Position numbers and translations under genes: made by a program
NCBI GenBank assembly: GCA_965178125.1
Contig: OZ237735.1
Coordinates: forward strand, 372,001 to 436,000
Source: Bilabrum cf. latius
Taxonomy: Eukaryota
Direction of reading: 5' to 3'
Length of the DNA stretch: 64,000 nucleotides
Notes under the pieces: generated by a model
What the model saw: the letters and a program-made list of their open reading frames with translations, nothing else
What the model was told of the DNA's origin: nothing
Database searches by the model: none
Part shown: in pieces, positions 1,550 to 63,560 of the stretch
Layout: each line of letters opens with the position of its first letter
Position numbering within the stretch: position 1 is the first letter of the stretch

Positions 1550-2794
1550 ATGAGTTTTTCTCTGGGAATTATTCTTATCCACGGCATGGCTGCGTTTGCG
1601 AACCAAGCTGAAATTGGGGGAATGGCAAGCGGCAAGTCCGTCAGTCCTGTCTCGGAAAGCCCCGGTGTGGGCAGCCAGACGAATGTTGACGGAATCATTC
1701 CGCCTGATATCCGCAGCTAGATTGAACGTGCAGCTAGAGAATAGGCCCAGCGTGACATTGAGCAACTGTTGAGGTCCAGGCAGTCGAAACGGACCGGCGT
1801 GCCGAAGCAGAATCGACGAATCCGGGCAATAGTTTATGACGATGGCACTGTGGAGGAATGCTGTTCTTGCAGTAGTGCTGCTGCCGGTGGGCCCCCACCC
1901 ACGTAGACGTAGGGCAAAAAGCGGCAGTCGTCTGTCCAATTTGACGAGACACCCTCAGGATTGCCCTCTGGCATTCTCCCTGGCTCCATTGAAGAATCAA
2001 TAGCACGCAAACACCAAAATAGGCAAAGTGCGTATTCTGCTGCACAACGGAAGTTCTTGAGGGAGGCGCCTAGCACCGGTGTTGGAGGTGCCGATAGCAG
2101 AGCCAGCGCAACCACAGGAGATAGCGGGCGGCAACTCGAGAGCACGGACAGTCGAGCTGAGCCACTCTCAAGTCAAGAGGTTTTGCACAACGCAGCAATT
2201 GTAGAGAGAGATGGCAAGCCCGCAAACCAAGCTGAAATACGTCAGGCGTCTGGTTTCCTGGACCACGATCCTGCACAGTTGGGCGGTCTCGACCTGTCAA
2301 GCATTGAATCAGAAATAGCAAAGGCTCTGGAAGGTGCCTTCTCGTCCGGAGACATTGACCTCAGTCGGCTTCTATCCGGCTCTGGCGCTTCAGGCGACCT
2401 CTAGCCTCAGTCTGATGGCGACGGACCACATGGGCGTCATGGTGCCCACGATGGCAATCGTGGTGGCGCTAGCGAGTCCTCAGAGGTAGACATGCTCACC
2501 TCGCTGCTCTAGCGCGAGTCATTGGGCGATATGCTCGGTGGCATCCTGTCCGAAGAGGATATCCGGCAGGCAGTGATAGAGGCGACCAAGGACGTCAGTC
2601 CGGAAGATAGACAGGGTTTGGAACCTGCGGTGAAAAGTGCAGATCCATCCTCTAACTGAGCACAGTCCGGATCGTCTGTACAGTTTGAACATGCCATGGC
2701 AGACGCAGGCAAGGCGATCGTCGAGTTCATAGAGGGACTCGCACTGGTGCGAAAGTGCACCTTTCAAATTCTGAGACTGGACGAGCAAGTTTGA
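1550..2794 (+). CDS. Hypothetical protein with a possible signal peptide; needs TAG=Gln and a probable 36-nt intron (2630-2665)
   Basis: ORF-track pieces 1460-1720 and 1961-2404 are one frame separated only by TAG codons. The N-terminus MSFSLGIILIHGMAAFA is hydrophobic. The in-frame TGA at 2657 lies inside GTGAAA...CTAAC...CACAG; the frame then runs to TGA 2792-2794. No family recognised. Confidence 0.6.
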
Positions 2795-2811
2795 CACAAC
2801 AAAGCGTAGAA

Positions 2812-3337
2812 ATGGCGGCTGCAACGTCCGGTGCTGCAAGTGAAATCGTAATGCGTAAGTTCTGTCCGCTGTGTACTTGATCTTTGCATGCCAGGATTGC
2901 TAAGTCAAACTTTGAGAGGTGATTGCACTTTATCATTCTGTATCGCAGCCCGATCTTTCAAGCTGCTCGAGGAGCTGGAAGACGAAAAAACTGGGAAATC
3001 TGTTGCTGGGGTTAGTATTGGTCTAGCAAAGGCTGATGATGAGCTGTTGTAGGAGTTCGCTGGCAGCGTAATACCGATGCGGGGCCCCCTGGAAGGCAGA
3101 TTCCTTGAGGTCAAGATAACCCCGCCTGAAGAGTATCCGAAAGAGCGTCCCGTCCTGAAGTTTAAGTCAAAGATTAATGCAGATTTTGTGGACTCATCAG
3201 GAAACGTAGATGCTGCCAAAGTTGCGGCTTTGAGCGGATGGATACACTCCAGCAAGATGGCTGCTGTCCTTGGTGAACTCAGAGCCTTGTGCGAAGGACT
3301 GAAGGTGTCCTAGCCCGAAGATGGGTCTACATATTGA
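2812..3337 (+). CDS. MMS2: Ubiquitin-conjugating enzyme E2 variant (UEV1/Mms2); exons 2812-2854 and 2949-3337
   Basis: The spliced product reads EIVMPRSFKLLEELE...YPKERPVLKFKSKIN...LSGW...VLGELR...KVS[Q]PEDGSTY*. This matches UEV hallmarks (PRNFRLLEELE, KLPQPPEG). Intron GTAAGT...CGCAG at 2855-2948, in-frame TAG at 3050 and 3311, stop TGA. Confidence 0.9.
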
Positions 3338-3605
3338 ATTGCAGTGAGCACGACACAGGCTTACCCGACAAACCCTGAGCTATTTTCTATTTATGCCACT
3401 GAAACCCCACCTCAGCTCAGCAGGCACATCGCATAGCAACAACATACCCAGCCATAATCTGAAAATATTAACCACTCTGATGCGCGTCGTATCACCAAGA
3501 AACGGGCCACAAGCAAAGATCAGCTTTGTCGAATGCGGTGCAGCCAACTGCAACCACATGGTGATGGCTGTAAAACGATCCGCACAAGACCAAACGCTTT
3601 ATCAG

Positions 3606-6600
3606 ATGGCAGAACATGAAAATGATGACCCATACGATCCGATCGATCTTACTTCAGGCGACGCTGGACTCCAGACTTGCGGGCAATCAGCAGCACCTCC
3701 TTTTGCGACTGCTGCCGTAGCATACGATGAAGCAGTCGAAGTAAATGCTGGCTGCAGCGACATTGAAGGATCGAGCATAAAGGGTGGTAGTAACGATACG
3801 GGTGGCGATAGCCATGGCTCCCGGGCAGATGCATTCAGGGCTGTTCACGTTCCAAGGTGGCTGCGGGCCCCATCTGATGAGCCTGCGTCGGACCAGCCGG
3901 CCACCATTTCTCGGTTGTCTCCATATTATCCGTGGAGCGACACGTTTGAAGCCGCGCAGGACATGCCGTCTGATACTCCGCGGCAGTCATTTGAGCGTGA
4001 AAAGGCACTGCTTGGGCTCGTGTGCGATTTCGAGCGGCTTGCGAGACGACTTGCGGCAATTCTTGCAGCTGAGCATGGACTTCCAGCTGATCAGCGAATA
4101 TTACGACCGACGAGTGGCCTAGGTGGCATCGCAGGAGGGTATAAAGTCCTCTGTGGCAATGTCTTTCTCAAGACTAGCGTGGATCACGCCGGAATATACG
4201 GGGGGGATGCTCACGCCGGGAAAGCAGTGTTCGAGCCATGAACTGAAGAGCCTGCGCAGTCTTCTCAGTGTTAGGGTGCCCGGGCTTTACTTACCACTGA
4301 TGGCCACCGCCCGCAGCGCGGGAATCACGGTGGTAGCCATCGCCCGGCTGCCAATCGGAGACCACACTCTCGTGTACGGCTCGTGCGACGCAGGCAATAC
4401 GGTGCGAATCAGAGACCACGCAATGAACGACATGGTCAGGCGAGTGTGCAGGAGGCTGAACCTAGGAGCGCACCCCGTTGGCGTGACTCCATTTGCGGCG
4501 CCGCCGTCCAAGCCCCAGTGGCTGCAGTCAGCTCCGGGCGATGCACCGGTCAGGAGCTCTGTCGTGCTGCGAGCCGCCGGCTCGAGGTAGGAAGGAGACG
4601 ATGGGTCAGAAGAGACATAGGGGCGACGACAAGAGGCGGCTGGAGGGAGTTCGCGGGCGGTGGGAGCAGGTGGCACACCAGGATTGCGACACGAAAGCGC
4701 AGCCTCAGGTGCTGCACCAGGTGCCAGCACTGCGGCGGGTGCATGTGCTGGCACGAGTGCCGGCGCTAGCGATTCGAGCGGCAGTGAGCCAACGGTCACA
4801 CCATACCCAGCCGCTGAGTCAGTCAGGTCGGCACAGGAGCTCAGACCACAACCGACTGAGTCTGCAAGCTTGATGGCCAGTCGGGATGACACGAACACGC
4901 AAGAGGTCCAGGACAAGACGAGGCTGCACCTGCATTCTGCCAAGCACCCGTTGCATCCTCGCGCCATGCGAGTCGGCCAGGCCGGAGCAGAGCGCCACTA
5001 TGCCGGCCACACTGTCTTGTGGGGGGCCTGTGATTTGGAGGGGCACCTGGTCAGGAGCAGGGCACAGCAACAGCCTGCAGGGGCAGAGGGCCAAATTACA
5101 GAGAGTACAGCAGACCCAGTGGCTTCTAGCACCCAGCCTATCGTAGCAACATAGTCCGATTCGAGTTCGGACGCACCTGCCGAGAGGCGCTACCTGCTAG
5201 ACACTGCCCGTCTGTTCCCCGCCTTCAGACCTCGGTACCGATCCAGCGGCGAGGTTGTGCCCGCCGTCAGCGAGGCCTTGGGTCCCAACTCGGACCAGAG
5301 GGCACTGGTGGTCATCCCAGCGCAGGAGAGCCACCAGGTCAGGGAGTTTCATCCGACCAACCCGGATCGCTCGTGGTACAAAGAGGCGGTTCATATCCTG
5401 TCCAGATGCATTGGGACGAAGCTTCGCTACGCAGAGTAGATCTACCGCGATCTGCTCCAAGGGCAGCGACAGCAAACGGCAGGCAGCGAGCAGTAGCAAG
5501 GGCCAGCGACTCCCATCTCTGTCGGCCAGCTAGAAGACGCGATGCGCAGAACTCCTCTGCGCGAAGAAAGCGTGAGGTACACGGACAGTGAAGACCTGGT
5601 CCGCATCAAGCGAGCCAGACGGTCTCCGCGGGGCTCTGGAGTCATGGTGCAAGCTATCGAACTCGACCTGTCAGGTGAAGACTCCCCGCTAGTTCGGCAG
5701 GATGCGGCTTCTTTGGCACCTTTCTCATAGGCGAGCCTGAATGCATGGCTGTGCGGTGGCGTCGCGTCGGGTGCAGAGCAGAATTAGCCAGAAGCCGATC
5801 GAGCTAGATGGCGTTGCATTACTGAGCATTGGGCCGGCATAGATGTGCTAGAAGGCGTTGTGCCACGGTCGTCATTTGGGCTTTCCGGTGGAGTGCCCGC
5901 CATGGCGCACTTTCCGCCGGGTTGGCATGACGTGTTCGATGCTCCAGCCAGCCAGGCGGCAGTTCCTGCAGAGGCAGCAGCACTGGGGCGAGGAGCGGCT
6001 GGGTCGCACGCAGACGACCGTCCCAACATCAACACGCGTGCAAGCGCTCTGCTTGGTGTACAAGTGACAGGCGATGTGGTGCTGTGCCTTGGAGTGGGGC
6101 AGCCCCTGTTCAAGCTGCTTCGGCCGGAGGCTGTACTGAAGCACCCTAAGCCTCTGTCCAGCGATGCATTTTCGGGATTTTCCCAGTGCCGCATGTGCAA
6201 GATCAATGCTTGCGGGCACTGCAGCAAGTTCTTCAACGAAGAGGTCCAGCAGGCTGCGATGGTAGTGCTTCGCGACAGGATTCGTGAGCTAGCCCGGCAG
6301 TTGGTGGATGGAAGCGTGTCCATCAGCGACTCTGATCAGCTGTGTTCCGTGCTTCACTCCAAGGGCATTAATTTGAGGTACCTCGGCTTGTTGCGTGCCA
6401 GCATACGGTCTCTTGCAGACAAGGAGCTAGCGGGTAGCGGACAGACTAATGCCTTTCGGGTGGAAAACGGTTCCAGACGAGGCTCACTGCAGGCTGGACT
6501 CAGCGCCGGGACTGGGATCGCTGGCTCGGATGGAGCGAGGGCAGCAGTGTCTGGTGCCTCTTCTCAGTGGATCTAGTCTCTTTTGCTGCAAGAGATGGTG

Positions 6601-9600
6601 GCACGCACCCTCCGAGTGTCTCTTGAGGAACGGATGCGGCTCGCGTTCAGACTGCACGGCGCGGATAGGCACAGGGCAGGCACAGATGCTCGGGAAGCAT
6701 CCGACGAGCTTGATGTGGCGTCTATTGTGGCTGCCTCTTTTTTGAACGTGGCCTTCGGCAGCAGCCGATTCACTTCGAGGCTCTGGCCTCGGCTACTGGT
6801 CGCGCTGTAGTATAAGTACGGCGTGCTGGCGTTGTCACCAGAGGAGCGCGAGCCGGGCAACTGGATTTTCGACAGCTCGGGACTCAAGCCCGTACCTCTA
6901 CTGCTGCGACTTGTGTCTCTGGCTGGCCTCGAGTTCGATGCGGCTCCGAGGGGTGCTGAAAGTGGCACGCTAATGGCAAGCACTGCAGCGCGTGCATCCG
7001 CTGTAGACGGTGTCGGGGGAAGGAACCCAGAAACGCCTGACAGCACACCTTCGCATTGGAATCGCTGGAATGCTGCGTATGATGGACCGCTCTGTGCAAT
7101 CCTGCGAAATCCTGAGGCGATGTCACTAGCTGCGGCGCCCTTCACCTATTCTTCTATCAACAAAGATACTGCAAGGCGCGAAGATGTACCTTCAGCCCTG
7201 GTGTGCGTTCGCGTTGTACCAAGGTCGAAGCCTATGGTACATCGAGACGACATGGTCAGGTCCATTGAAGAGCTTGCCGTCTCTGAGTCTCGCTCAAGGA
7301 CTGCAAGCCTCGCTGAGGACGGTGCTCCAAGCGCTGGCCCTGGCCATGGTCGTGAGCTAGACAGAGTTCACACGTTAGTCTAGATCGTTCGACTGGCAAC
7401 GGATGCGTTCGGCCAGCGAGATGCATACACGCTCAGCGCCCAAGTATAGCTTGGGTCGGAATTGACGCGCAGGCAGCGATCTGCCGAGGGCAAAGCGCAT
7501 GTGTTGGCAGCGTTGCAATCCATGACACCCCAGAATAGCTCAGACGGCTTGCAGGGGGCCGGACATCCGGAAGCAAGCTCGGTCTCCGAGTCGGACGACC
7601 AAGGCCTTCCGCTCCATCTTACAATCGCTGGCGTTGAAGCCCGTTGCGCCCTAGGCGAAGCGTTGGAGCTGTAGGGCGCCTTCGACGCGGCACTTGAGAC
7701 TTACCGTCACGCTCTAGCACGGGTCAGGCTGCTAGCTCCGCTGCATCCCCTCGTTGGCAAGCTCAGCTGCTGCGTTGGTAGAGTGCTGCTGCTGCACCCT
7801 AGCCCGACACGTGGTTGCACGGATAGCACGAGCCTAGGTGCATCGAGCGTCGCGGTCTAGACCCCTGGAGACGTCGCCGGCTCCATTGGCTCTGAACTGG
7901 AGCATGGGGCAAGTGCAATCGCCGCGGTCCGAGCCGCCTTCAAAGTGTACGATTCCCTTCTGGCAGGGTCCGACTCGCCATCTTCCATCGTGCAGCTCTT
8001 AGTGCCGGCTTTGCTATCTGGCAAAGTGGGTGATGTGGCAGCTTCAATCAGCTCTACCTGCCAGCTGGTGCGGGGGTTCGTGCAGCAGCAGGCACAGGCG
8101 CTCGCTTTGATGGGCGTGCAAGACGTAAAACGCAGAGCCTTAGGTACTGCGCCGATGGAACGATCGAGCGGTATCAAGTAGATTGCCAAAGCCCGATCGT
8201 TGGATCAACCCCAGGGAAGCGATGGAGCCGGAGCCCGGGTGATCAAGCTTGCCAACGGCCTCAGATTTGGCGTGCCTGCAGGCAGGCCCGAAAGCACAAT
8301 CACTATGCTACCATTCTACTGGCACGGCGAAGACGATGCAGAACTGGCTGTCAAGGCTCTACTACGCCGGTTGGGGGGAAGCAGAGCCCTCGAGGAGGCA
8401 GACAAGCACGCAGGGGAACTCGCTGGGGTCAAGCACGCTTCCGGCGTAGCCGCTGCCGCATCCGTCCCACCCCCACGGACTGCGAGCAGCTTGCCTGCCG
8501 CTCCAGACCTTTCCCAGGTGGAGCAGTCATTGGTGCCGCCAGCCATGGGGCGTTCCAAGAGCGATGAGCTGTTTGATGAGCTGCAGGCAGGCGATGTGCC
8601 TCGCTCTGACAAGGATGCAGCGGGTGCAGGAAATGGTACCGGGTTGGTGGAAGCTGGCGGTACCTCGGGGGACAGTGCCGAGCAGGAGGCATGCATACGT
8701 GCCATTCAAGCGGGACGAGCAACCTTGCACCGGCTAGTCCGCTCCCTTGCACTTCTCGAGGACATGATTGGGGCCCCCCGCGGGTCGAATCTCGGGCTTA
8801 GCGGAAGGCTGTTTGGCAGCTCAGGCATCACGGGAAGTGCAGACGCGTTCAACGAGTGGGTGCTGGGCGATGAGCTCTTCACCAAGCCGATACCGCAGCG
8901 GCAGTCATCCTTTGCGAGCTGTGGCGACGACGGGTCGTCCTCTCGAGACATCTTCGATTCTGGGGAAGCCATTTCTGTCTCTGCAGCTCGCGCTTCTGGC
9001 CTGCGTATGGCATCGGATGATGCCTCCGCAGTGGTGGAAATTCTCGGCCCAATCGTCAAGTGGGCACAAGCTGGCGATATGGCGTGCTCTCTGCTGCGAT
9101 TCGCCAGCTCTACTGGAGTTGCGCTGGAGTCGCACGAAGTCAACGAGGTCTATCTCGAAGGACCCACCAGGGTGCGATGCACCCTCTGCGCGACGACTCA
9201 CCCAGGAGTGCTAGCAGCATGGTACATGCCAGTCAGGTCGGGCTGGTATAGGTTGGTAGCTTCAGTACGCGGCCCAGACGGCGCCCTCGGGGAGCACGTT
9301 TCGTCTCAAGACTGTCTGTGCGTGGTGCCGGGTCTGCCCGATATCAGGTCTGCTGCGGTATTTCTTCCCTCGAAAGTGTACACGCACCAGATCCTCATGG
9401 GGAGGGTCGACTGCAGAGACTGCTGTGGCAACATACGAATGAACCCGCTGGATCAGCTGCACATGGTCGGGGCTCTGTCTGGCAGGCGCACGCATACCAT
9501 GTGCCGCATCCGTGCAGACGTAGGGCTCGACGGCATGGTGGCATCATCGCCTACAGCTCGCGTGCAGTCGATTCCAAAGGAAATGAGTATCAGCGACATG

Positions 9601-10125
9601 AACCTCCGGGTTGGGGTCGTCAACTCTGCCGGGGAATACCAACTGGACATGAGATCTGCGACGGCACCTGACGGCACATTTGTCGATCCTCCACATTGGT
9701 TGGTGTGGCGCTGCTTCATGCCCGCTACAACCATGACCTCTGGTCCTTGGATGTTCAACTGTGAGCACGGAGCCGTGCTTAAGTCATACGAGGTTTGCAG
9801 GGTGGAAGTCGTTGACACCCCTGGCACCAACAGTCTGTGTCCTCATCGAGTTAACGACATGTTTAGCTGTGAGGCGACGCTCTGCTAGATGTGCTCCATG
9901 CGGTGGGCCAACAAGTGCACGCTGTGCGATAGCATACTGGTAGGTCGTACTACCATGGCCAGACTTTGCCAGAACCATGCGCGGCAACACGGTGGGTCTG
10001 GCTTTGCTAAGCCGCACTGCATCAGGTGTGGGGGCCTATGCACATTGAACACGCGCGTCGCACGGCTGTGCTCCCGATGCTCCGTCACAAAGGCGATACA
10101 GTGCGTGTGGAAGGGCAAACACTAA
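3606..10125 (+). CDS. Clu (CLUH/TIF31-like) domain protein with TPR-like helices, a filamin/Ig-like segment and a C-terminal PHF5-like Cys-rich zinc finger (~2,170 aa); one apparent frameshift at ~4228
   Basis: Clu motifs GGIAGGYK, HELKSL, LPI...TLVYGSCDAG, DLEGH, RYLLDTARLFP, LLRPEAV..LSSDAFS, LHSKGINLRYLG and EMVAR. From ~4234 to TAA 10123-10125 the gene is one frame broken only by TAG. Confidence 0.8.
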
Positions 10126-10250
10126 TGTAGCCATTATTTGGATTTGGTAGGTCGGGCTATTCTTGCAGTGTGGCATGCAAATCTGGTAAAAAAGTGGAGT
10201 GTTCATGGTCATTCATACAACATATACTATACTTACTAGTTCCCAAGCTG

Positions 10251-13200
10251 TTACACCTGTTCCGACGGCCCTACAAGGCGTTCTTTTACGTACCAGGGAG
10301 GAAGAGGAGCTCCACCCTCGTCGGTAACCACCCTGAGAAACCGCACCTCGACGTCGTCTACGGCTGCATGCTCTTCATCATCTGAGTTTGGTCCTTTCAT
10401 CGCAGGGAATAGCGCAACTCCACCCATAGGTACATGATGTCGCTAGCCACCCACAGCTGTGCGCTGGTGAGGCCTTGCAGCGCTCGTTGGTGGAGAGGGA
10501 TCTCTTGCAGACGTGACGCCAAGCTAGCGCTGCGGTCGCGAGGGGCCATCGCCAGCGGCAGCCGCGGCGTCTGCGGCGGGGGAGACAGGCTCGGAAGCCT
10601 TGCCCCCAGTCCGACTCGAGGCCCCTGAATAGGGCAGGTGCCGCTCTCCGCTTCCGTCACTCCCGCAGTCTGATTGCAGCGGTGTAGACGGGGCGACAAG
10701 GGCCGGCTGGTCTTGCCGGTCCCGGTGCTTAGGCGCTCCTGGTGACCCCACGATCTGCGTCCTCTGGGGTGCGCTGGCTCGTATGGCCTGCTGAATCGCA
10801 TCCCTGAGGCTGTGAATCTCGCTCCTGCTCTCCAGCACGCGGCCCAGCTCCCTCTGCAATCCGTTGCGAGACTCCTCCAGCGCGCGGCACCGTGCCTCGC
10901 AGGTCTACAGGGCCTCTTTCGCCGCCAAGCACTCTCCCTATAGCCGCCGCATCTCACTTTCTTTGCTTCGAAGGGCCTTCACGACGTATGCTTCCGGCTC
11001 GGCGGCCTTGGCGATGTCCTCTTCCATGCCCAGCATCGCGGCACGCAGCTCCTGCGCGGTGCGACGCGCAGCCTCCAGTTGAGCCTTCAGGCCGTGCACC
11101 TCGCGGGTACGAATGACCAATAGGTGCGCCAGCCTGACTCCCTGTCTCACCCGGCGCTACGCCCCGACGGGGAGGCCACCCAGGAGCGCCTCATTGGAGT
11201 CGACGGTAGGAAAATCTGAAGGCCCTGAAGGTCTCTCTGGAGACTTGCTTTCAGAGTGACCGGAGGACCGCTACGCACCCTTGCCGGCATCAGAGCCCGC
11301 AGTTGAGCCATCGGCATCTGCCTCTTCGGCATCGCTGCCACCTGCACCCTGGATCAAACCCGCAGCCGCGCGGCCCGCTGCGAGCACCGTGGCATCCAAC
11401 TCCGCCTCTAGGGCCTAATACGCCCGCACCTTTGCCTTCTCGTGCTCTAGGCTGGCTCGCAGCTCGGCTCGCTCTTGCTCCGTGCTGGCTCCCACCCTCT
11501 GCAGCTCTCCACGCGCCACATCAAGCTGCCTCCGCAGGATTTCTCCACGCTCCTCCGCGGCAGTGCGTCCTTCCTGCGCTTCACCCAGGGCGGCGTTGCA
11601 CTTCTCGAGCTCAAATGACTTGACCCTGCAGTCTGCCTTTGCCTGCGCCAGCTGCTCTTGCATGCTTCGAAGGTCATCCTCCAGCTGCTTGGATGTCTGT
11701 CGTCTTGACGACTCTGAGGCATCCAACCGCTCTTGCAGCGCCCGAATCTGCACGGACTGGTCGTCGATCCGCCCTTGCGCATGCCTGGACTCTCTCGCCC
11801 TCAGCTCCTCTGCCTCCCCGCGCACCTTGGCGACCTCCACCGCCGCTTCCTCCCTCAATCTCTGCAGCTCGGCCTCCAGCTTCAGTGACTCGCTGGCAGA
11901 TCGCTCGTCCCTCTCCCGCTGCAGGGTATCCCGTACCTGCTCCCGCCCTGCCTCTGCCTGGCTGAGACGAGCCTCAAGCTCCTGTGCTCGGGCGCTAACC
12001 CGCCTCAGCTCCCTGTCTGCGTCTTCCGCCTATCTCTGCCACCTCGTCCTCTCGGCTGCGAGGGCCTCGTCCTTGGCCTTGAAGTCCCCCAGTTCCCCAC
12101 GGAGCCGCTCTCTCTGGTCCTGCAGGTCGTTGACGTTTTCCTCCGCTGCCCCCAGGGCATGGCTCATCTCGTCCACCCGTCTCTGCAGGGAGATGCGCTC
12201 GGCTTCCGCGGCGTCGAAGGCGTCCCCCTTCCCTTGCAGCTGGTCGCAGCGCTGTTCCAGCCCGCGCACCCTGTCTCGCAGTCGCTCTGCCCGCTCCTCG
12301 GCGTCTCTGGCCCTGCCTTCTGCATCCTCGCAGGCAGTTTCGGCCGCCCTGGCCCTGCGCACGGCCTCCCTCTGCTGCCTATCGGAGGCGGAGGCCTGCC
12401 CACCCAACGTCTCTCGTGCCTGGTCAAGTTCCCGCCGGACAGTCTCGAGCTCCCGCCGCAGCGGTGCCGTGGCCTCTTTCAGCCGCAGGCACATCCTCTC
12501 GCGCAGGCTGAGGCTGTCCTTGGGTCTCCTGCGCAGCTCCTCCGCCGCGCCCTCGCTGAGCGAGAGGTCGGCTGCATCCAGCTCTGCCTCCGTGGCACCC
12601 GCCCTCATGTGCTCCACCTCGCGCTGCAGAGACGCCAGCTGCTCCTAGTGCGACTTCCTGAGCGACTCCACCGACGCCTCCGCCTGCCTTGCCCTTGCCT
12701 CTGCTCTGCTCGCCCCTGCCTCGGCCTGCGCCGCCCGGATGGTCTGGCCGTGGAGGGCGTCCTCCAGCTCGTCGACGCGATCCGCCAGGCGAGTGTTCTA
12801 AACGTCCAGCGCATGGGCGCGTCCTTCTGCTGCGGCAATTTCGCGCGCAGAGGATGCCCTTGCGCGGCCGCCAGACGGGTATCCAGGCGACAGCCCAGCT
12901 GCCGTCAACGTGAATGAAGAGTCACCGAATGTGTCGCTATCATCGATTCGAGGGGTCGGAGCTGACCACCCCACTGGCTTCTAGCTGCTATAATGCTCAT
13001 CTTTTAATCCATGCCCAACGCCCTGTCGTTGCGCAGCGCGATGGCTGCTGCGTCTCGGCGGCGTTTGCAGGTCCCGAATCACTGAAGATGGCAGAGACAG
13101 GTCCACCGATGCATCTCCTCCCGAAGATCCTCCACTTTCTAGGGCATGATCTGATTTACCTCGTTGGCCTCTCTGAGGTGTCTTTCTCAGCGCTGATCGC

Positions 13201-13409
13201 AAGGCTTGCCGGTTTGACGAGCGTCCTCGCTCGCTTGACGAGCTCTGCGAACTTCCCGCGGACGGCAAATTTATGTCGGCTGTTCCAAGAGTAGACGGTG
13301 TATCGCTGCTACTCTGCGACGCGATTTCACGAACGTCCTATTCATCGAGTGGTGTCTGGAGCCCTGCTTGTCGAATCACTTGCCGAACCTCCTCCGAGGG
13401 GTCACTCAT
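10251..13409 (-). CDS. PIBF1: PIBF1/CEP90-like centrosomal coiled-coil protein (~1,052 aa with TAG=Gln)
   Basis: Five same-frame ORF pieces joined by TAG. Segments EELRRRPKDSLSLRERMCLRLKEATAPLRRE, RVKSFELE, AY[Q]ALEAELD, RRVRQGVRLA and EPEAYVVKALRSKE resemble PIBF1 as I recall it. ATG 13407-13409, stop TAA 10251-10253. Confidence 0.78.
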
Positions 13410-13601
13410 TTGTCGGAATGATTCTCGGGACCTTGCACGCAGTTATCAATCACGCACGCAGCGTAGATTGGAGTGTACAGGCTCTCTAGCAGAAACAACG
13501 CGGCTGTCCCGCTCAATTTTCTAGTGTGCAGCAAACGGCAACGAATCCAAAACCACACTGCTTAATCGGGAAGCCACGAAGAATCTGATTTAACTCCGCC
13601 G

Positions 13602-15731: not shown

Positions 15732-16161
15732 CCAGAAACTGATGCGACAGAAGCCGTTGCAAAATGGTTTATAAATTATTACCGAACGCTGCAATCAAAG
15801 GTTTTGAACAAGGATGTCCACTCTGCGGCGCCGCGCGCTGCATCCCCGGGCCTCCGGCGGGACGGTTCCGCTTCTGGTGGCCAGCCAATGATATAGAGGG
15901 AGATTTACGTTCCCCTTGGTATAGGACACGGGTACATTGTTTAAGCTCAGGTCTATCTGGACCAACCAAGTAAGACTTGTTGGACTTCAGCGGTCTACGT
16001 AGGATTCTAATGTAAATTTTGCTATCATTGCATTTAAGTCGAGGCGATCTTGGCGGCATTCTTGCAGCACGAACGCGACGCATAGCCGCAGCAACTATGA
16101 GAGTGCACCCAGTTAAATCAAATATTTCGCAGGGCATTCAATCATCTTGCGAGCTGCAGCC

Positions 16162-45729: not shown

Positions 45730-45737
45730 CTGGGCCA

Positions 45738-46118: not shown

Positions 46119-46272
46119 GATTCAATGGCACCCCTACTGACGAATACAGAGCATCCATGTACAGTGATGTTTGGGCCGATAGTGGTATACTGATCGGATC
46201 AATTCCGAGTACGAGCTGAGCGAGACCAGCGCTCTCACTTAGGGGAATTCAGAAGAAGATAAAGGAAATAAT
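46117..46272 (+). repeat. Split direct repeat A2 (156 bp), sharing an AT dinucleotide with B1
   Basis: Copy of 39592-39747 directly abutting B1. Confidence 0.95.
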
Positions 46273-47555: not shown

Positions 47556-47936
47556 GTGGGTGTTCCTTGCGGCGTTCGATGGGCGAACAGCCAAAAGGGG
47601 GGCCCAGTGTAGATCCCGTGGCCAGTGGCAGGTAGTCCCCATAGCGGCTTGAAAGGTCCGTGCCGCCTGCCCAGTGCCCGGGGAAGCACCAGCCAAAACC
47701 AAAGCGCCACGGAAGGAGGAGATTACGAGGAGCAGGTACTAGGTACGAGAGTGGAAGCTGAGGGCAGGACAAAGCGGCCAGCCGGGCCTAGGCGGCACGG
47801 AGACGGCCGTGCTAGCGACAGACGAGTGGGCGACGGTGGGTAGCGGCGCACGAGTGGCGCGTGGCGGGAGAGGGAGAGTGCTGGGGGAGCGAAGCATTGA
47901 GCGGTTGATCGACAGATCCACATTACCAACCATCAT
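47556..47936 (+). repeat. Split direct repeat B2 (381 bp), right end of the element
   Basis: Copy of 45738-46118. Confidence 0.95.
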
Positions 47937-49979: not shown

Positions 49980-49995
49980 GGTGTGTTTTGAAACC

Positions 49996-50018
49996 GGGGG
50001 GGGGGGGGGGGGGGGGGG
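49996..50018. repeat. G23 homopolymer between two convergent gene ends
   Basis: Seen directly in the sequence. Confidence 0.9.
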
Positions 50019-50100
50019 CTGTCCATTTCTATGGGAATTGCATCGGCGCACACGACGCTGGTTGACTGAGTATCCGCATGTTTACATCAACAGTGCCTGT

Positions 50101-51874: not shown

Positions 51875-54800
51875 TCAAAACTTGCCCGACTACCTTAGCG
51901 CAGCCTTCAGCATCGAACGATCTGGCAGGATATCTCCTGAAGCTGCGCGACTGGACCCGCCCTTTCTCGCCGTGCCTCGCTTCGCCTTCCTCCGCTTCGG
52001 CGGGTCAAACACCGTAATCTCCCGGCCGTTCAGCTCATCCGCCGCAGGTCTGGGCCGCTTAGCCGTGGTCCCCGTCCTCATTTCAAATGATCGTCCTCCT
52101 TGCACGATGCCGAGGTAGGCCCCAGCTGGAAGCACAGGGGCAAGCGCCTTGGTTCGGTTCGGCGACTGCAGGCCTCCAGCCAGCACTGCCCCGGTGTGCT
52201 GTGGAGAAAAGATGTCCGAGGGCCCGCCCCGTGCCCGCATGGATCCATTACGCCCCCTGCGAATCGATCCGGCCAGCGGGACTCCATCCCAGGTCTTGTG
52301 CACCGGGCCTAGTTCCCCCGGTGGCGGCTGCTGGGACCCAGCCCCAGAGGCCCCGCCTCTCCTTCTTGAAGTCGAACCCCTCACACCTCCAGCGGTGCTG
52401 GCTGTCCCAGACACCCGCCCGTCAATGGACTCGGCCAACTCGCGCTAGTGCCGGGCCTCTCGCTCGCCCTGGGACGCAGTCTCAGACGGGAGCGAGGGCG
52501 CTCCCCCACGCCCCCCTCCTCTTCGTCCTCCTCTTGCACCTGCACCAGCACTACCATCGCCGCCGAGAGAAAATGGGTTGCCCGGACTCACCAGTGCTGG
52601 CTCCGGCGCCATCCCGCTGGCCCGGGCCTGCCGCACTGCCGCCGCACGCTGCCTTCGCACGGGGTCGCGCGCCAGACCCAGCTCCCGCTCGAGCTCCTCC
52701 TCCCTCGACTCGTCGGCAGCTGACCCTGCAAGGGTGCCCTGGGCGTCCACCCCGGCGGCATATGCATCCGTGTACGCGGCCAGCTTGCCTACTCGCGTCT
52801 AGGTGCTGCTACTCTGACGACCCTGCACACCCCGCCGACTGCCTCGTCCAGCGACTTGCCCCCGATTCGTCCCCGCTGACTGGGACAGCCCGAGCGATGC
52901 TTCTAGCTCCCTCTCTGCCTCCGTTTGACCCAGCCCATCCGCACCCTCAGCGTGCAGAGAATCGACCGCGTCGGCGAACGTGACGTTCAGTGCTCTGTTC
53001 CCCGTCCCGTGCCCCTCTGCCTCCTTGCTCTCCTGCAGACCTGAAATTCGGCTGCCCCTGCGCTGCCACTTGGCGGGGTCGTTGATGGGATCCCCCGCCC
53101 AGCTCGTCAGCATCGAGATGGAGCCCCTGCGGTGGTGCCTCTGGTACACGCCAGAGGCAGCCGTGGACTCGGTCTCGTCAAAGTCCTCCTCCTCCGCTAA
53201 CCCACCAACCACGGTCCTATCGGCCTGCACGGCAGTCGCTCCCTCGTTGCCCTGCTTCTGCTGCTTGATCGCCTTCAGAGTGTCTGCCATTGACTTCCGC
53301 AGACCGCGCCGGGTGCCCGTGCCTGCCTGCACCTGCTCGACGCCCTGCTGCCTGAGCAGACCCTGCTGGCTAAAGGCATACTCGGGGTTGCGCCCCGCAG
53401 TGGTCCGGGCGAGGGCGCCCAGAGGTGCATCGGGGTCAGCCTCGGCCGCCGCCTCCACGTACAGCTTCGCAGGAGCCGGCATGTTCGAAACTGCGGCGGC
53501 AAACCTGTCGGCAGCAGCCGGTGTTGCGCCCGCTTGCTGCCTCAGCGGCAGCGTCTTGCCGCGCCTGTACCGGTCGTACATGAGCGCTCTAGCTCTGGCC
53601 GAGGACGACAACAGCAGTTGGTTGGACTTGGCCTGAGGTCGCTGCAGAGCAGCGAGCCGTTCGTCATGCTCGCGCTTGTCGCGCAGCTGCTCCTATCGTC
53701 GACGGTGGCTGCGCACCAGGTACTCTTCGTGGACCTTACGGCTGGCTGGAGACATGCTTGCTTGCAGATCCATGAGCCCCCTTGCAGCATCTGGCAGGTC
53801 AGGCTTGCTGCGAATGCGACGCGAAACGGGCGCCGACTCCTCGTACCGTTCAGGCTGTTCCTCTGCAGCAAGGCCAGGGGTAGCAATGCCATCATCCTGC
53901 TCTGCTTCGGCATCCGCTAGACTTGACTCGTCATCTTCACCTTCGGGATCGCTGAAGCCTGTCGCACCAAAGACGTCGCCTTCGGTTGGTTCGCGCGTCG
54001 GAGGCGCCAAAGGCATGGAAGAGTCTTCATCGCGGGGCATTGCTAGCGAGCGCAGGTCATGTCCTTCATCGTCGTCTTGTCCAGAAGCCTACCCGTCACC
54101 TGATTCGTCCGGACTCTCTGCGCGCAACTCGTCCAGCGAGCCCGACTTCCTGAACTGCTCCTTGACCTCCTCTTGCAGCCGCCGCGCCATCGCCTTGAGC
54201 TCTGCGGCTGGACGCTCCTATGTGGGGAGAGGGGCGGACGATACCACCGGGGCCTTAGCAGCTGCGGCAATTGCCTGACTTCTACCACGCAGCAGCTGCG
54301 TTATAGGATGTTCGTTCGGTCGACCTTCGCCATCGCTCTCACGCGCAGTTCCAATAGCTGGCTGCAGGTCCTGCTCCGGCTGACTTTGATCCCTTGGCTC
54401 CATGAACTTGGCAGCATCTTCTGCTTGGCTGCTCAAAGTAGGCTCCTCATCCTGCCGTGCTGGCTGCCCGTCTTGCCCTTCGACGAATGGATTAATACCA
54501 AGAGCAGCGGCAGCCTCTGACCCGGACACCACAGCAGCAGGCACGTCACCCACGCCTGCACCCTCGGCAGCAGGATCGGCCGCTACTGTCCCGTCCCCGT
54601 GGCTGTTGCCAGACCCACTCACTGCGAGGGATTGCTGCTACTAGGACGTGCTGGACGATCGACGGGGCCTGCGCGACTGAATGGAAGCGCCAGCAGAGCC
54701 TGCACGGGGCGCAGCTCCATGCTTCTCGTCGCGCGCTCCGGACTCCTCCTGAGCAGTGCTGAGCCATCCACCGATCCGCCTTGGCTTGGCGTCGCCTGTG

Positions 54801-57800
54801 CTCACCACGTCACCGCCACTTCTCATGCCGAAGAGTCTGTCGACGTCATCCTGTCGTTGTCGGCGCGACTCTGCGCTCAGCAGGTGCGACCGCATGGCCC
54901 TCGTAGGCGACGCGATCCCAATGGAGGACCGTCTAGAACTCCCCCGAGGCTTGCTGCCGTCATGCACAAAGGCGTCGTTGGCAGGCTTCCAGCCCTTCTT
55001 GCTGAGCCGCTCGAGGGGTGCTGCCACAGCCGCAGTCGGTGGTGGCAGAGGCTGTCCGGCCGGCGAATGCGTGGCAGTAGCGAGGTCATGCATCGCCGTC
55101 TTGGTGGCGGGCGAGCGGTTCAGCTCCTTCTCCAGAGCTGCAGCCCTCGACTCGGCTTCTTCCTGCTATGGATGTGCTTGCGAACGGCTCGATTTTGGAT
55201 CCGAATGAAAGCCAAGGGCATATGGACCCATCTTCACATCTCCCCAGGCCTCGCTGCGGAGGTTGCGCCGCATAGCCATCAAGCCGCTGGATGGCTGCCC
55301 CTGCGACTGCGAAGCACTATCGGGCACTTCCGGAGACACTTGCTTATCTGCTTCGACTTTCTCATCTTGTCGCTGTGGCGTGCGCTCCTCTGCAGAGCCC
55401 TTGAGGCCTAGCTTGGGAGCTGCGGGCTGCTTCCGTTCTCTGGCCGTCTTGAGTGCGTCAAGTACGGCGTCAAAGTCTTCCGGTGGCACGCCCGATGCTT
55501 TCGCAAGGGCGATGATCTGCTCATCTGTCGCACCAGTACCACCGTCTGTGCCTTCGGCTTCTTTGCTAGAATTGTGCCTGGCTATCGGCTCCTCATCGGC
55601 ATCGCCTGGAACTGAGGCCTACTTTTCTGGAGAGGTTGGCCTGATACCAGTTGCCTCGTCGACCTCATCGCTTGGATCTGTGCTGAGAGTCTGTCGCGTC
55701 TCATGCAGCGGTTGGTCTGTCTATGAGGCTGCGCCTGGCTCTTCATCGCCTGCAGGTGGAACGCTAGTCTAAGCCTCAGTCGAGCTGCCCTTGTCAAACA
55801 TGTCTGCGACAGCTTCAGCCGTCGCCTGTTCGAATGGAGAGGGAGCGTCCGCTTGCCCAACTGCATCACGCTCTGGCGTGCTAGCAGAGTGTTGCTTGCC
55901 CGACGGTCCAGACGGCATGTGCTCCTCGCTCCAATCAAAGCCGCCGTCCGGGTTCTCGTCGCCCTGGTCCGATTCCATGCCATCTCCCGACGGGCGCAGG
56001 CCACCTGGGTGTGCCTGGCTGGCATCACCCGCGTCGGGGTTGCCCTCTTCGTCGGAGCGATCCTGTTCGTATCCGAACTGCCGCATCGCTGCAGCCCTAC
56101 GAGCTTCCTTGGCTCGCGGGCTCTCAGCGTCTACTGCCTGCACCAGCCCTCTGGCAGCGGACCCGTCGTGCGTCTGCAGCAGGACCACGCCATCCGGTGG
56201 GTTGGAGCCAAGCCTCGCCTGCTCGATCGCCGCCATGGCAGCCCTCCCGATGGACCCGTGCACCTCGCTGGGCTTACCTCCACGCAGCCTGGACCCGCGA
56301 TTTGTCCGCCGCGCGGCGCTGCCATACCGCCAGTAACGAGCTGTGCCCCCGCTTGCTGGCCTGCTGGGGTCTGGCCTGCCGTCGGGCGTGCTGGACCCTC
56401 GTGAGGTTCTTGAGGCATCCAGGCGGCTCAATGGAGGCGACGTGAAAGTGGCTGAGCGCTAGGGGGTGGAAGTTGTAGGCTCTGGCATCGGCACTGTGCC
56501 CCAGCCCCGCATAGCTGTCGGTGTCTGCTGGTCCCGCCGGGACTGTGACCTCCTGGCTGCATCAGCAAGGTACGTGCGGGGATGAGGAGGGGAGGCGAAT
56601 ACTTCCTCCGCCCCATCGCCTTTCGATTGAGAGCTGTCCAACCCTGTGCCTTTGTCCTCCATCTCTCGCACCGCCTGACGGACCCTGCCCGCGGGCTGCG
56701 ATCTGGTCAGCTTCTTGCCCCTGCCGCGGGCAGACCCTCTGGCCCCGCGCCCACGACCTGCGGCAGACCTGCCGCGCCGTCCAGTCGTTGTGGAGCCACT
56801 GGATGTGAGCGTGCGCCCCTGCAAGCCGCCCATCGCGTCCTGCTCGTCTTCCAGCAGATCTTGGCTGGCCTGCCTGCGTGCCGCGGCCAGCTGGGCTCGT
56901 TCTGCCGTCCGCGCAGCTCGCTGGGCCCGCCTCACCGCTCGCTCCACCGCTCGCTCTGCCGTCCTAGAGCCTCCAAAATCCGATGAGTCTACTCGTTTTA
57001 GCACCCGCGGCGGCTCATCCTCGCCACCTCCCGTCGTGGACGCAGCCAGATCGCTCTCGTCTGCCGCCCCCCTGCCCCCAGCAGTCACCTGCCCTTCACC
57101 TCGGCGAGGCGCGTACCTCTGACGGTCGGAGCTGCGGGTGCTCCCGCTCGTCTCTCCTTGGACCCTTTCGTGCAGATCGGAGCTGCCCAAGCCTGGTGTC
57201 CCCACTGCCCGGGGAGAGCGCTGCTGGCCAACCAAGTCACCTGCGAGGCTGGCGGGCGTGCCGGGCATGCCTGCGCTTCCACGAGGGGAGCCTCGCTGAC
57301 TAGAGGATGGGCTCAACAAGAGACGCTTAGCTCTAGTATGCGAAGACGGTGATCGCTTCGCAGCGGGCTCTGCTTGCCCCTGCACGGGGAATTGATCGGA
57401 TGCACCTTCGGCAGTACCGCCACCCGCTGGTCGTGCGCGGGTGCCGGTCTATGCTCGATCCTTGGCTTCTTTTGCTCGACGTTTTGCCTCCGCATATTCA
57501 TTTCGCTGCAGTCTGAGCTATAGCTGACGCGAATCAGACGAGACTGCTGAGGCTTGCTTGGGACGTGCCAGCCGCCCCCAGTCTGATGCTTGATCATCGC
57601 TGTCTACAGCTCCGTCGCTGCCCACTCCATTATCAACCGCATGCCGGCCTTGCAGCTCGCTTGGTGGCGACCGAGTCTCTTTCGCAAGCTGCTGCAAGGG
57701 CTGCAGCGGCGACGGGGTGCTATTGCGAATATTTGGCGGGCCGGTCTGTATAGGAGAAGAATCCTTCTTGATTGCGTCCGGCTGGGAGGATCGACTGTCT

Positions 57801-57967
57801 TGTAATTTATCAGTTGCACCATAAAACCCTTGGGCTCCCGCCATTCGTCGGGATCTAGTGATTTCTCGCGCGGCTGCTAGGGAGCTCTCCACATCGTAGT
57901 CATCCTCGGCAGCTTTTCTCAGGTCTTGGAGCCTCTGCTCTCGTTTCTTGCTTCTTGGAGTCGCCAT
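51875..57967 (-). CDS. Large low-complexity (S/A/G/R/E-rich) hypothetical protein, ~2,030 aa
   Basis: Ten same-frame ORF pieces joined only by TAG. Start MATPRSKKREQ (ATG 57965-57967), stop TGA 51875-51877. No domain recognised. Confidence 0.75.
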
Positions 57968-58168
57968 ATGTGTGACCTTTCGTGTATCACGTTTTGATCC
58001 GTCCGCGCAAGGACAGACTACCTTGTTGACCTGACCGCAGTTTTGCGAGCCGTTCGGTTTGGCCGCATTGCACTGCACTGTGGTGCCTTGCGGTCGCAAC
58101 TGGTCGCACAAAATTCAAAATCGAACGCACCCCAAACCTCTTGCTTCAGTTGAGGCCTTCATCATCAA

Positions 58169-60260: not shown

Positions 60261-60380
60261 TTCGATAAGCGCGTGCATAGACTGCTGATTTCGTTGAAAG
60301 ATGCTCCATTAATGCTCTTTGTCGCACATGCAAGGTACTAGCGGACTGCCTCTGCCTCTGCCACTCGATCTGACTCCAGC

Positions 60381-63300
60381 TCAGCTCAAGGCACCAACTG
60401 TCCTCTGTGCAGCAATGTCTTTATCGATTCGCTTGGAGGCCTTGTGGTCCTCTAATGACGTCAAGGCTGCCATTTTCTTCCTGTTCCGAAGAGACTCTGG
60501 CTGGTCATCATCAGCGTGCTAGGCGGTACCACGCGAAGGCAGCGGCGATGCGTCGCCAAAGTACCTGTCCACGACTTTGTCGAGCTCTTCCTTGGTCTCA
60601 TGCGTTCGCCCAGGTGAATTCGCGAAGCCGATCGAACCAGGCAGGGAGAACCGCCACCCTTGGGCTGCAGCCATGCCGGCCTTGCTGGTAGGCTGCAGCT
60701 CGCCTGCAACCGCCCCGAGGCTGCCAGCGGAGCGATATGGAACCATCGGACCGTCTGTTGCGCGGTCCTCCATACCAACGACCGGAGCCACCCGTTCGTC
60801 CCCAGGCTTCGGCCGTCTGCCACGCACGATCCGCCTGGGCAAGTCACTGCGGCTCGTGCTGCCAGGCAATGCCACTAGACCGCCTCGCACGTCCCTTGCA
60901 ACGCAGGTGTACACGTACTGGCTTGCCGACGCATCCCACTCCCGCTTCCACATCCTTTTATCAATCGACGATTCATCCACGCCGAGTGCCGTGAGAAGTC
61001 CATCCAGCTGTACCTGTCTCTCAGCGATCTCTGCGTGCATGACTCCGTACCACTTTGCTTCCTGCCCGCTCTCGAGCTCGCTTAGCACCTCTGCGGCGTA
61101 TTCTTGGAGGATCTGGTGCCTCGCGGCTGCCTGCAGCCCCTGGGACTCAGTGGCTTGCAGGCTCTCCTTAAGTATTGCGGAGTATCCAGTGCCACCGTGG
61201 TGCACCAGCGCGCGATACTCACGCAGTCGCGACCTAGCCTTGGAATCGACGCGCGCCCTGACGTCAGTTAGGTCCCTGTACCTCTGCTGCGCAATTTCAA
61301 AGGCACGACGCGGGAGGGTTCGTTCCTCCTTGGCTCTGCGCTCCTCTACCGATGCAGGGATCAGACGGATGCACTCCTGCAGCTGTACCTCCATCCGCCG
61401 CAGCGCGCTCTGCAGCTGCAGGTACCCGAACAGAGCATCCGGGTTCGTGTCGAGCCCCTCGTCCTCATCCATAGCAAGCTGATACTGCTCGTCGACTTCA
61501 GCCTTAACGGCGTTCAGAACCAGGATCTCTTCCTCCACGCGCCTCTGCTTGGGCCCCATGTGAAGCCATCGCTCGGTGGCTGACGGGCGATCGCCCATGG
61601 CAAGCTCACGCTGCACCTGAGCGCGAAGTGCGTCTTCCTCCTCCTTTCTCTGCTGCACGTACGCATTCATTGCAGAGACTTGCTCTCGCTAATGCACGTC
61701 CATGATGTAATCCACCGAGGAGCCTGGTGGGAACCTCTCGTTGCGCCACCTCGTGAGCTGCAGCCAAGTGGTGCGGCCAAGGCAACGGCTGCGCAAAGCA
61801 GAGCGGATAGCGGTGGCAGCACCCAATAACTTGGGGTGTGTCCTCAATAGCTCAATGAACTCATCAAAATCAATGGTGCCGCTGTCGTCCGTGTCTGCAG
61901 CGAGAACTGCTGGGTGCAGCCCCGGGCCAACCCCGTCACAATCTGAGTCTTCCACCCCGCTGCTTGCAGCAGGCGAGCTGCTGAATCGCGTGGCTTGTGA
62001 TGGAGCAGCAAGCTGAGGCGTACTGATTGATTTATTCATGCGCTCTCCCGATGCTGCATCTGTGCCGTGACCCGCCCCCGCCTTGGTCTCAGCAATCGGT
62101 CTGCCACGGCTGTCCTTATTCGCAGTGGCATCCTTGCCATGGCTGCCTGTTGCAGATAATGCAATAGCTTGGCCTGTAGTATTTGTACCGCTTGCATTGC
62201 TTACGCCGGGGTTTGCATCACGCCCCGGCGGGGTGGTGGGTGGCCCGCTCGATGCAATGCTAGACCGCTGACTCTGGATTTGCACCCGACTTGGGCCCTG
62301 GGTCAAAGATTCACCCGAAGCAGAGCATGACTGAGCCATAGCATGGCGCGCTTGGCTCGGTTTACCAGGCTGCGTGCTCTCAATCCTGGCCTGCTCCAGC
62401 TGCTGCAGCATGCCTTGGCTCAGCATCGCGTGCCCAGGCAGGGCGGCCTGCTCGGAGGACAAGGCACCGGCTCCACTCCACCAGTCTGCATCGTCTTCTT
62501 CTGCCAGTTTTTTATGCTGCTTAGAGCCGTGCTAGCTGAAGTCATTCCGTTGGCGGGACGAACTCGGAAACCTGGCAGTGGCAGTGGCAGTGGCAGTGGC
62601 ACGGGTGCTCGTGCTGGTCCCGGCGCTCGCTGGCCCCTCACTTGCAGGAGGCTATGCTGCTTGCATTATGCTTCCATTTCCATTGGTGATGGCAGCGCGA
62701 CTGTCTTGACCTCGCTTCCACAGCCAAGACTTCAGCTCTGCAGACGTGGTTGAGTCGATGCTGCCTTGCCTGCTTCTGCTTCTGTGGCTGCCTTGGGACT
62801 CGAGCACCGAGTCGGAGTCCGTGTCCACGAGAGACACCACGTCGTCATCAGCACCTGCGGTGGCTGGATTGTCCCGAACACCGAGCGCAGTGCTAGCTTC
62901 TACGCCCAAGGGCACTATTGTGTTGGTTTGCGGGGTGCTTTTTGACTGCTGTGCTGGTTTGTCTACGACTGTAGCGTTTCGATCCGAAGTGGGCCGCCCG
63001 GATTCGGTGAGATCGTCGGGCTTGACGGCCTCTGTCGGCTGCTCTGTCAGCATTCGATACAGCGCATCACACTGTGGCAGAGTCAGTGGCTCTGGTTCTG
63101 TTATACCTTCCCAGTCGTCTTGCTCCCCTCGAATGATTCGAGTGCTTCTGTCATGTCCCGTTCCACTCCCAACGAGCTCGAAACAGAAGCGAGCGATAGC
63201 GGCGTTATCCATTGTGCATACGTTCCACAACCCCGCAACAAACTCCAAGTAGTCAAGTTCACCGCTGCCGTCCTTATCGAAAAGGGCAAACAGGCGCTCC

Positions 63301-63560
63301 ACGAACCTAGTGCGCTACAGCGAGAAGTATTCTGTCGTCTCCGCAAGCGACAGGCTACCACTCCAATCAGCGTCTGCTTCCAGAAATGTGGCGAACATCT
63401 CCCAACTACGATTTTCATCCAGATTAAGTCCGTCGAGAAACTTGCGTTTTCTCGGAAATATGCGATCATGGAAGTACTCAAGTGGTGGAAGTCCCTCCTT
63501 ATATATCTTTGATATTTCGAGCGCCCTGCTGCTGTTTTGCTGCGACAATACGCAGCCCAT
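60381..63560 (-). CDS. EF-hand calcium-binding protein with an N-terminal MGC acylation motif, coiled coil and a WW-like motif (~1,059 aa)
   Basis: MGCVLS start. EF loops DADWSGSLSLAE, DKDGSGELDYLE and DTDDSGTIDFDE. Four same-frame pieces joined by TAG; stop TGA 60381-60383. Confidence 0.8.

Follow-up and report, generated by a model that had tools for sequence, protein, structure and literature searches.

Evidence that UAG encodes glutamine, and that UAA and UGA are stops, in a 64-kb stretch of eukaryotic contig OZ237735.1

The DNA analyzed here is a 64,000-nucleotide stretch of contig OZ237735.1 (positions 372,001 to 436,000; GenBank assembly GCA_965178125.1, Bilabrum cf. latius), which is referred to as the window and numbered from its first letter. 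Its genes are interrupted by in-frame TAG, and an earlier note on this DNA had proposed that UAG is read as glutamine while UAA and UGA remain stops. This proposal is supported by the structure of the open reading frames (ORFs), by transcript-derived contigs in which the TAGs are kept, and by comparison with orthologues. The probability that UAG encodes glutamine and that UAA and UGA are stops in the nuclear genes of the window organism is put at about 0.88. At the scale of the window, UAA and UGA are terminators, and the 158 in-frame TAGs are read as sense whatever their context, even 8 codons before a stop.

Reading frames and transcript-derived contigs

With the standard code, no stop-to-stop ORF in the window exceeds 568 amino acids. 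With TAG as sense, ORFs of 7143, 2114, 2079, 1086, 1063, 887, 865, and 721 amino acids appear, whereas TAA alone as sense gives no gain (the longest ORF is still 568 amino acids) and TGA alone gives a longest frame of 705. The long frames thus open only with read-through of TAG, and the effect is specific to this codon.

Codon counts were made on 15 reconstructed ORFs with 18,767 codons, all from this single 64-kb window. In frame they hold 158 TAG and no TAA or TGA, as had been claimed for the genes of this DNA, and the two off-frames hold 56 and 92 TAA, 276 and 485 TGA, and 180 and 149 TAG. TAG is therefore about equally frequent in frame and off frame, in contrast to TAA and TGA, which are kept out of the frame. 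Because each ORF was ended at its first TAA or TGA, these two zeros are built in, and ORF length is the informative test. With TAA and TGA together at ~2.4% per codon off frame, an open frame of 7143 codons is not a product of chance. This frame is the giant HECT ubiquitin ligase ORF (16117–37548, plus strand), for which about 60 in-frame TAGs had been estimated; 62 are counted, with no TAA or TGA. Across the 15 ORFs, TAG accounts for 158 of 937 glutamine-type codons (16.9%), or 8.4 per 1000 codons. No bias is seen in the base following TAG (A.23, C.30, G.28, T.19), so that context-dependent read-through is not the explanation.

Of the 15 ORFs, 12 are closed by TGA and the other three by TAA (at 10123, at 10251 of the minus strand, and at 45727). 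The earlier note had these three TAA ends right but counted 16 ORFs and 13 TGA ends. Pfam matches run across the TAGs, in line with its statement that domain parts lie beyond them: in the PAK-type kinase the Pkinase match extends to residue 698, past a TAG at residue 660, and in the ligase the HECT match extends to residue 7130, the last TAG being at residue 7040. The presence of Pfam domains in frames that depend on TAG read-through indicates that the long frames are real genes.

Twelve sequencing runs matched the window, and four of these (X1–X4) contain the whole stretch and are possible sources of it. Contigs of X1 and of X5, X6, and X7 (X5 and X7 from one study, X6 from another) were compared over window positions 1–20000. 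The X1 contigs are colinear with a flat depth of 16; in X5–X7 the depth steps from gene to gene. A joint from 2854 to 2949, which takes out 94 nt bounded by GT and AG, is found in contigs of X5, X6, and X7, that is, in three runs from two studies, and it is precisely the joint that brings both exons of a gene for a ubiquitin E2 variant (UEV) into frame. The spliced joint and the gene-wise depth steps together indicate that the X5–X7 contigs derive from spliced transcripts. Listed X5 contigs include 28 of the 48 in-frame TAGs of positions 1–20000, X6 contigs 13, and X7 contigs 9, with no other letter at any of them. Across the 20 kb only one base difference is reported (C>T at 18444, in X7), and the TAGs are identical, with no difference, in contigs of four runs from three studies. 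The TAGs stand unchanged in these contigs, so that editing, removal as micro-introns, and assembly error do not explain them, and the expectation that they persist in transcripts was borne out.

The residue at TAG and the competing explanations

Relatives of the window proteins were used to ask which amino acid stands at TAG. A metagenome contig of 6157 nt, L001, was found with the PAK protein; the PAK encoded there has 81% identity over its length and 88% in the best segment. One frame of L001, 1326 codons long and open to the contig end, holds 12 TAG and no TAA or TGA. Among protein fragments from Logan assemblies (P0072–P0085), ten are 87–96% identical and four more 40–52%; P0075, at 71–72% identity, covers no TAG site. 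The fragments are gene calls made with the standard code. Four of their ends fall exactly at a window TAG and two within one residue of one, while two fall at CAG and one at TCG.

At 14 window TAG sites a relative of 81–94% identity carries a sense residue, and this is glutamine in nine, glutamate in two, and tryptophan, leucine, and serine in one each. The probability of at least nine glutamines among 14 random columns is 1.7e-10. Under a substitution table built on the 2556 columns of the same alignments (identity 89.8%), the 14 observations have a log-likelihood of -35.6 for glutamine, followed by -57.2 for histidine, -57.8 for tyrosine, -58.6 for lysine, and -96.7 for glutamate. At residue 3105 of the HECT ORF, a TAG pairs with glutamine in three relatives, which are 92%, 52%, and 40% identical. 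Likewise, the TAG at 3311 of the UEV gene pairs with the glutamine of KLPQPPEG in human UBE2V2, as the earlier note had proposed from its KVS[TAG]PEDG; the conserved tail follows, and the TAG lies 8 codons before the TGA. The other UEV TAG, at 3050, pairs with a threonine. All five printed alignments in this comparison are with the same human UBE2V2 protein.

Pfam bit scores were compared with TAG set to Q, E, K, L, S, W, Y, R, A, or X. For the reverse transcriptase match RVT_1, which spans four TAG sites, glutamine scored highest (45.7), followed by glutamate and lysine (both 44.9), serine (43.7), arginine (43.5), alanine (41.2), X (40.7), tyrosine (38.1), leucine (37.4), and tryptophan (35.8). 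For the UEV match UQ_con, glutamine was again at the top with 31.9, the others ranging from 29.3 to 31.2 (lysine 31.2). The quoted TAG sites of the reverse transcriptase, 43383 and 43620, are present in the DNA, as is that at 3311. A likelihood based on neighbour profiles ranked arginine just over glutamine and was uninformative. The TAGs that had been noted within glutamine runs are likewise in place (TAG-CAA-CAG-CAG at 21913, TAG-CAG-CAG at 25342, and TAG-TAG-CAG-CAA at 54643–54632 on the minus strand), but the argument drawn from them is weak, as the enrichment of glutamine beside TAG is 1.19-fold.

Several points weigh against the assignment of glutamine or against the way it was reached. 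The sample is one 64-kb window. The kind of runs X5–X7 is only guessed as RNA, X5 being flagged "probably DNA" and no listed run being marked RNA, and an intron-less DNA form behind their contigs is conceivable in a formal sense. Among the relatives, DNA was seen for L001 only, so that the stop codons at fragment ends are inferred. In the Pfam scans, glutamine leads glutamate and lysine by less than 1 bit. Glutamine is retained in close relatives at 9 of 14 TAG sites versus 83 of 92 CAG or CAA sites (Fisher p 0.019), and the 30 glutamines seen beside TAG compare with 25.3 expected. The TAG in the PAK kinase domain pairs with glutamate in human PAK2 and with serine in L001. In the fast-evolving N-terminus of the HECT ORF, which is 39% identical to L001, the residues opposite window TAGs are T, E, H, V, and N, and those opposite the TAGs of L001 itself are V, I, A, T, and L. 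To a minor extent, TAG may be decoded as other residues. Codons for the glutamate, tryptophan, and leucine seen at the 14 sites (GAG, TGG, and TTG) are one-base neighbours of TAG, which would be expected of a codon that arises where constraint is weak. We read TAG as a glutamine codon that is used preferentially at weakly constrained positions; the lower conservation of glutamine at TAG sites may reflect where new TAGs arise, or imperfect decoding.

The five non-glutamine residues among the 14 sites, the glutamate or serine at the PAK site, and the narrow Pfam margins are what could be cited for TAG as another amino acid (Glu, Lys, Leu, Ser, Tyr, or Trp) or for ambiguous decoding. This explanation is nevertheless improbable, given the plurality of glutamine at the orthologue sites, a log-likelihood more than 21 units over that of the next residue and 61 over that of glutamate, RVT_1 scores for leucine, tryptophan, and tyrosine that lie 7.6–9.9 bits under that of glutamine, and the pairing with glutamine both at residue 3105 of the HECT ORF, in relatives of differing divergence, and in the UEV. 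A TAG of dual meaning, as in Condylostoma or Blastocrithidia, would be read as sense within genes but would terminate translation close to the 3' end of some mRNAs. As ORF ends were placed at the first TAA or TGA and the sample is 15 genes, a genuine stop at TAG with a short open stretch behind it would escape notice. The UEV, however, has a TAG 8 codons before its TGA with conserved C-terminal residues after it, the kinase and HECT domains extend past their last TAGs, and TAA and TGA never occur in frame, unlike in codes without a dedicated stop (PMC4967479); dual meaning is considered improbable, although occasional termination at UAG could go unseen among 15 gene ends.

An ordinary code in which UAA and UAG both specify glutamine (NCBI table 6), with TAA merely scarce through high GC, would agree with the observation that the two codons are usually reassigned together (PMC5304391), and TAA is indeed the rarest stop triplet in each frame of this 55–64% GC window (47–99 per frame). 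From the ratios of A-ending to G-ending codons (CAA/CAG 0.46, GAA/GAG 0.52, AAA/AAG 0.36, TTA/TTG 0.14), however, 23–82 in-frame TAAs would be expected in the 18,767 codons, and none is observed (P ≤ 1.4e-10). Reading TAA as sense with TAG and TGA as stops lengthens no long ORF, and three ORFs end in TAA. Beyond the TAA of one of these, a CLU-family ORF, lies a tail of 103 codons that enters a convergent gene and has a GC content at third codon positions of 0.44 versus 0.63 in the ORF, and the other two tails are 13 codons, holding a second TAA, and 34 codons. The tails beyond TAA have a noncoding appearance. We therefore consider this code very improbable indeed. That the TAGs are untranslated, through sequencing or assembly error, UAG-to-CAG editing, tiny introns, or pseudogenes, has in its favour only the formal point that rare variants are lost from contigs such as those of the runs. 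Against it stand the same TAGs in four runs and three studies and across a spliced joint, two tiers of relatives that keep TAG at the same sites (in the Logan tier presumably), and the lack of the in-frame TAA and TGA that random C-to-T damage would also yield. Fifteen of 15 long ORFs as pseudogenes broken by TAG alone are not credible, and the probability of this explanation is negligible.

With UAG as glutamine and UAA and UGA as stops, the mechanism may be sketched from other such codes (PMC5304391). A tRNA-Gln(CUA), one base from the CAG-reading tRNA-Gln(CUG), would pair with UAG, and a C:A mismatch would bar it from UAA. The release factor eRF1 would have lost or weakened its recognition of UAG and retained that of UAA and UGA. 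UAG would then be an ordinary glutamine codon; of the two terminators left, UGA is the commoner.

Genes and the retroelement of the window

The window has a GC content of 55–64% (58% for the 64-kb stretch) and no N letters. It is gene-dense, and the intergenic spacers are mostly short. At its left end, a gene of cyclophilin type (PPIL6-like; 354–1442, minus strand; Pfam Pro_isomerase, E 1.2e-33) has no in-frame TAG and ends in TGA; the nearest atlas clusters to its protein are cyclophilins, PPIL6 among them, and were of no help for taxonomic placement. An ORF of 434 codons without a family (1355–2659, plus strand) ends in TGA and has six TAGs (1718, 1742, 1904, 1910, 2402, and 2510), all six of which lie inside listed X5, X6, and X7 contigs with no other letter. 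In the UEV gene, the intron that corresponds to the joint described above (2855–2948, plus strand; 94 nt, GT..AG) is removed in X5, X6, and X7 contigs, and the joint is absent from X1. Exon 2 (2951–3337, plus strand) holds both TAGs, the UQ_con match, and the TGA at 3335–3337, and the protein matches human UBE2V2 with a phmmer E of 1.6e-16.

The CLU/eIF3_p135-like ORF of 2114 codons (3781–10125, plus strand) has 16 TAGs and a TAA end (10123–10125), and fragments P0072–P0075 are from its relatives. A coiled-coil ORF of 1063 codons (10251–13442, minus strand) has 12 TAGs and also ends in TAA (10251–10253); an X5 contig spans 10256–12902 with no other letter. These two TAA-ended genes are convergent, with 125 nt between them (10126–10250). 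The PAK-type kinase of 721 codons (13566–15731, plus strand), with PBD and Pkinase domains in Pfam, has five TAGs (13650, 13902, 14520, 14577, and 15543) and a TGA end. It matches PAK2 in the Protein Data Bank with an E of 2.9e-78, L001 holds its orthologue, and an X5 contig spans 13619–15788, again with no other letter.

A 163-nt intron with GT..AG ends (15970–16132, plus strand) may lie upstream of the HECT ORF; it is suggested weakly by a joint from 15969 to 16133 in one X5 contig only, the shorter side of which has 41 letters. The HECT ORF itself has SPRY and PA domains besides the C-terminal HECT and ends in TGA; fragments P0076–P0085 are from its relatives, and an X5 contig of 19,904 nt begins at 17341. 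The order of PAK followed by giant HECT is kept in L001 (1–6157 versus window 13566–20700). The two neighbours differ greatly in rate, PAK being 81% identical and the HECT N-terminus only 39%. Downstream lies a gene for an FAD-linked sugar-1,4-lactone oxidase of 605 codons (FAD_binding_4 and ALO domains; 37645–39462, plus strand) with a single TAG at 37825 and a TGA end.

A retroelement with split direct repeats occupies 39586–47855 on the plus strand and is recognized by its repeats and by RVT_1 (E 2.3e-10). The repeat pairs are 39586–39747 with 46111–46272 (99%) and 45738–46037 with 47556–47855 (100%), in the order A1...B1-A2...B2. Its three overlapping ORFs, all on the plus strand, hold 28 TAGs in total: six in ORF1 (39695–42292), 18 in the reverse transcriptase ORF of 887 codons (42021–44684), which is about twice the window average, and four in ORF3 (44386–45729), which ends in TAA. 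No Pfam match was obtained for ORF1 or ORF3 (the latter at E ≤ 0.1), so that the tyrosine recombinase was not recovered that, together with a reverse transcriptase and split direct repeats, would mark a DIRS-like element such as the Ngaro named in the earlier note. The retroelement evidently lives with the variant code.

To the right of the retroelement, a hydrophobic, membrane-like ORF of 513 codons (48438–49979, plus strand) has two TAGs and a TGA stop, immediately 3' of which is a run of ~23 G (about 49995–50020). The remaining three ORFs are on the minus strand and end in TGA: an ankyrin-repeat ORF of 320 codons (50101–51063) with four TAGs, a low-complexity ORF of 2079 codons (51875–58114) with 15, and an EF-hand protein ORF of 1086 codons (60381–63641) with five. 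ARAGORN found no tRNA gene in the window, Rfam gave no match, rRNA included, at the gathering threshold in the window or L001, and an eRF1 gene is not among the window ORFs as judged by Pfam.

Known codes and the lineage of the window organism

Four features of codes in which UAG alone has passed from stop to glutamine were found here: UAG is kept in frame in mRNA (from runs whose kind is guessed), it corresponds to glutamine in homologues (a small sample), UAA terminates genes (at the scale of the window), and so does UGA. The code is thus a further member of a known, rare kind and probably represents a further lineage. The same three codon assignments are described for the fornicate Iotanema spirale, with a predicted tRNA-Gln(CUA) and an eRF1 carrying T32G in the GTS motif (PMC5304391). 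In that organism UAA is the predominant stop (PMC5304391), in contrast to TGA at 12 of 15 ORF ends here, and the window differs further in being GC-rich and in carrying the CLU ("clustered mitochondria") family gene and the lactone oxidase. This combination would seem more in keeping with an aerobic organism than with an anaerobic fornicate.

Protocruzia tuzeti and, on two occasions, phyllopharyngean ciliates are likewise reported to have glutamine at UAG but not UAA, and Scotinosphaera to have serine at UAG (PMC11687900). The list of uncoupled cases in the earlier note, which besides Iotanema and a rhizarian has only "a few ciliates", was incomplete in this respect. Protocruzia tuzeti and the two phyllopharyngean lineages have the same code as the window and are independent recurrences of it. 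The window differs from these ciliates in its 64 kb at 58% GC, its retroelement, its 21-kb gene, and its PAK with a CRIB domain. Macronuclear DNA of Protocruzia and phyllopharyngean ciliates is not known to resemble such a stretch.

Codes with both UAA and UAG as glutamine (NCBI table 6) are known from many ciliates, hexamitin diplomonads, oxymonads, ulvophytes, and Amoeboaphelidium protococcarum (PMC5304391, PMC11687900, PMC6299283, PMC6394959); UAG as glutamine is common to these and the window, but TAA is not sense in the window. UAG alone is changed to leucine in the rhizarian exLh and some ciliates and to serine in Scotinosphaera (PMC5304391, PMC11687900). In these, UAG is uncoupled from UAA as in the window, but the amino acid differs: leucine is 8.3 bits below glutamine on RVT_1, and the 14 orthologue sites include a single leucine and a single serine. 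An origin from Amoeboaphelidium, an algal parasitoid aphelid, was considered and rejected on GC content and code, since its genomes have 40.5% and 39.9% GC (PMC10608142) versus 58% here, and it is cited for both TAG and TAA as glutamine (PMC6299283, PMC5304391, PMC6394959), whereas TAA is a stop in the window.

A search with the lactone oxidase protein gave 71 proteins at E ≤ 1e-10, the best three being 29–33% identical over 63–71% of the query and later ones up to 45% over shorter stretches, with no close eukaryotic relative among the matches. Scans of viral contigs with the reverse transcriptase region and PAK as queries gave no relative, and a scan of genome contigs with PAK gave only a 28% identical kinase from a chlamydial metagenome-assembled genome. 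Within positions 1–20000 of the window, identical sequence, with no other letter, occurs in runs under three coded organism labels (A, B, and C) from three studies, and runs labelled as protist and as algae metagenome hold small shares of window sequence. The organism may live in mixed cultures alongside other organisms.

In-frame TAG is shared by at least two more organisms that are known from environmental or culture sequence data only. The change thus belongs to a clade of at least three divergent organisms, the window organism included, and is not peculiar to a single strain. A UAG-only glutamine lineage outside ciliates and fornicates was not found in the published literature, although species tables in supplements could hold one. 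At somewhat less than even odds, the window organism, its Logan relatives (87–94% protein identity), and the more distant L001 organism form an unplaced GC-rich clade, neither ciliate nor fornicate, that uncoupled UAG independently and is not in print. The earlier note had likewise suggested that the reassignment may be independent and undescribed, possibly in a Cafeteria-like stramenopile. The public pieces of the CLU-like and HECT genes (P0072–P0085) start at an internal methionine and end at TAG (the stop being inferred), and they are short because the gene callers used the standard code. Proteins of this clade are thus cut at TAGs in public collections, and its genes are systematically mis-annotated.

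UAA and UAG hardly ever change meaning separately, and each lineage in which they are split is a test of whether their coupling lies in wobble at position 34 of the tRNA or in the way eRF1 recognizes the third base of the stop codon. TAG here makes up 17% of glutamine codons, is denser in the retroelement, and stands at less conserved sites than CAG and CAA. A GC-rich lineage with a long contig, spliced genes, and sequencing runs could supply what the published non-ciliate case lacked, namely genomic tRNA genes, sequences of eRF1 and glutaminyl-tRNA synthetase for several relatives, and insight into the spread of TAG codons.

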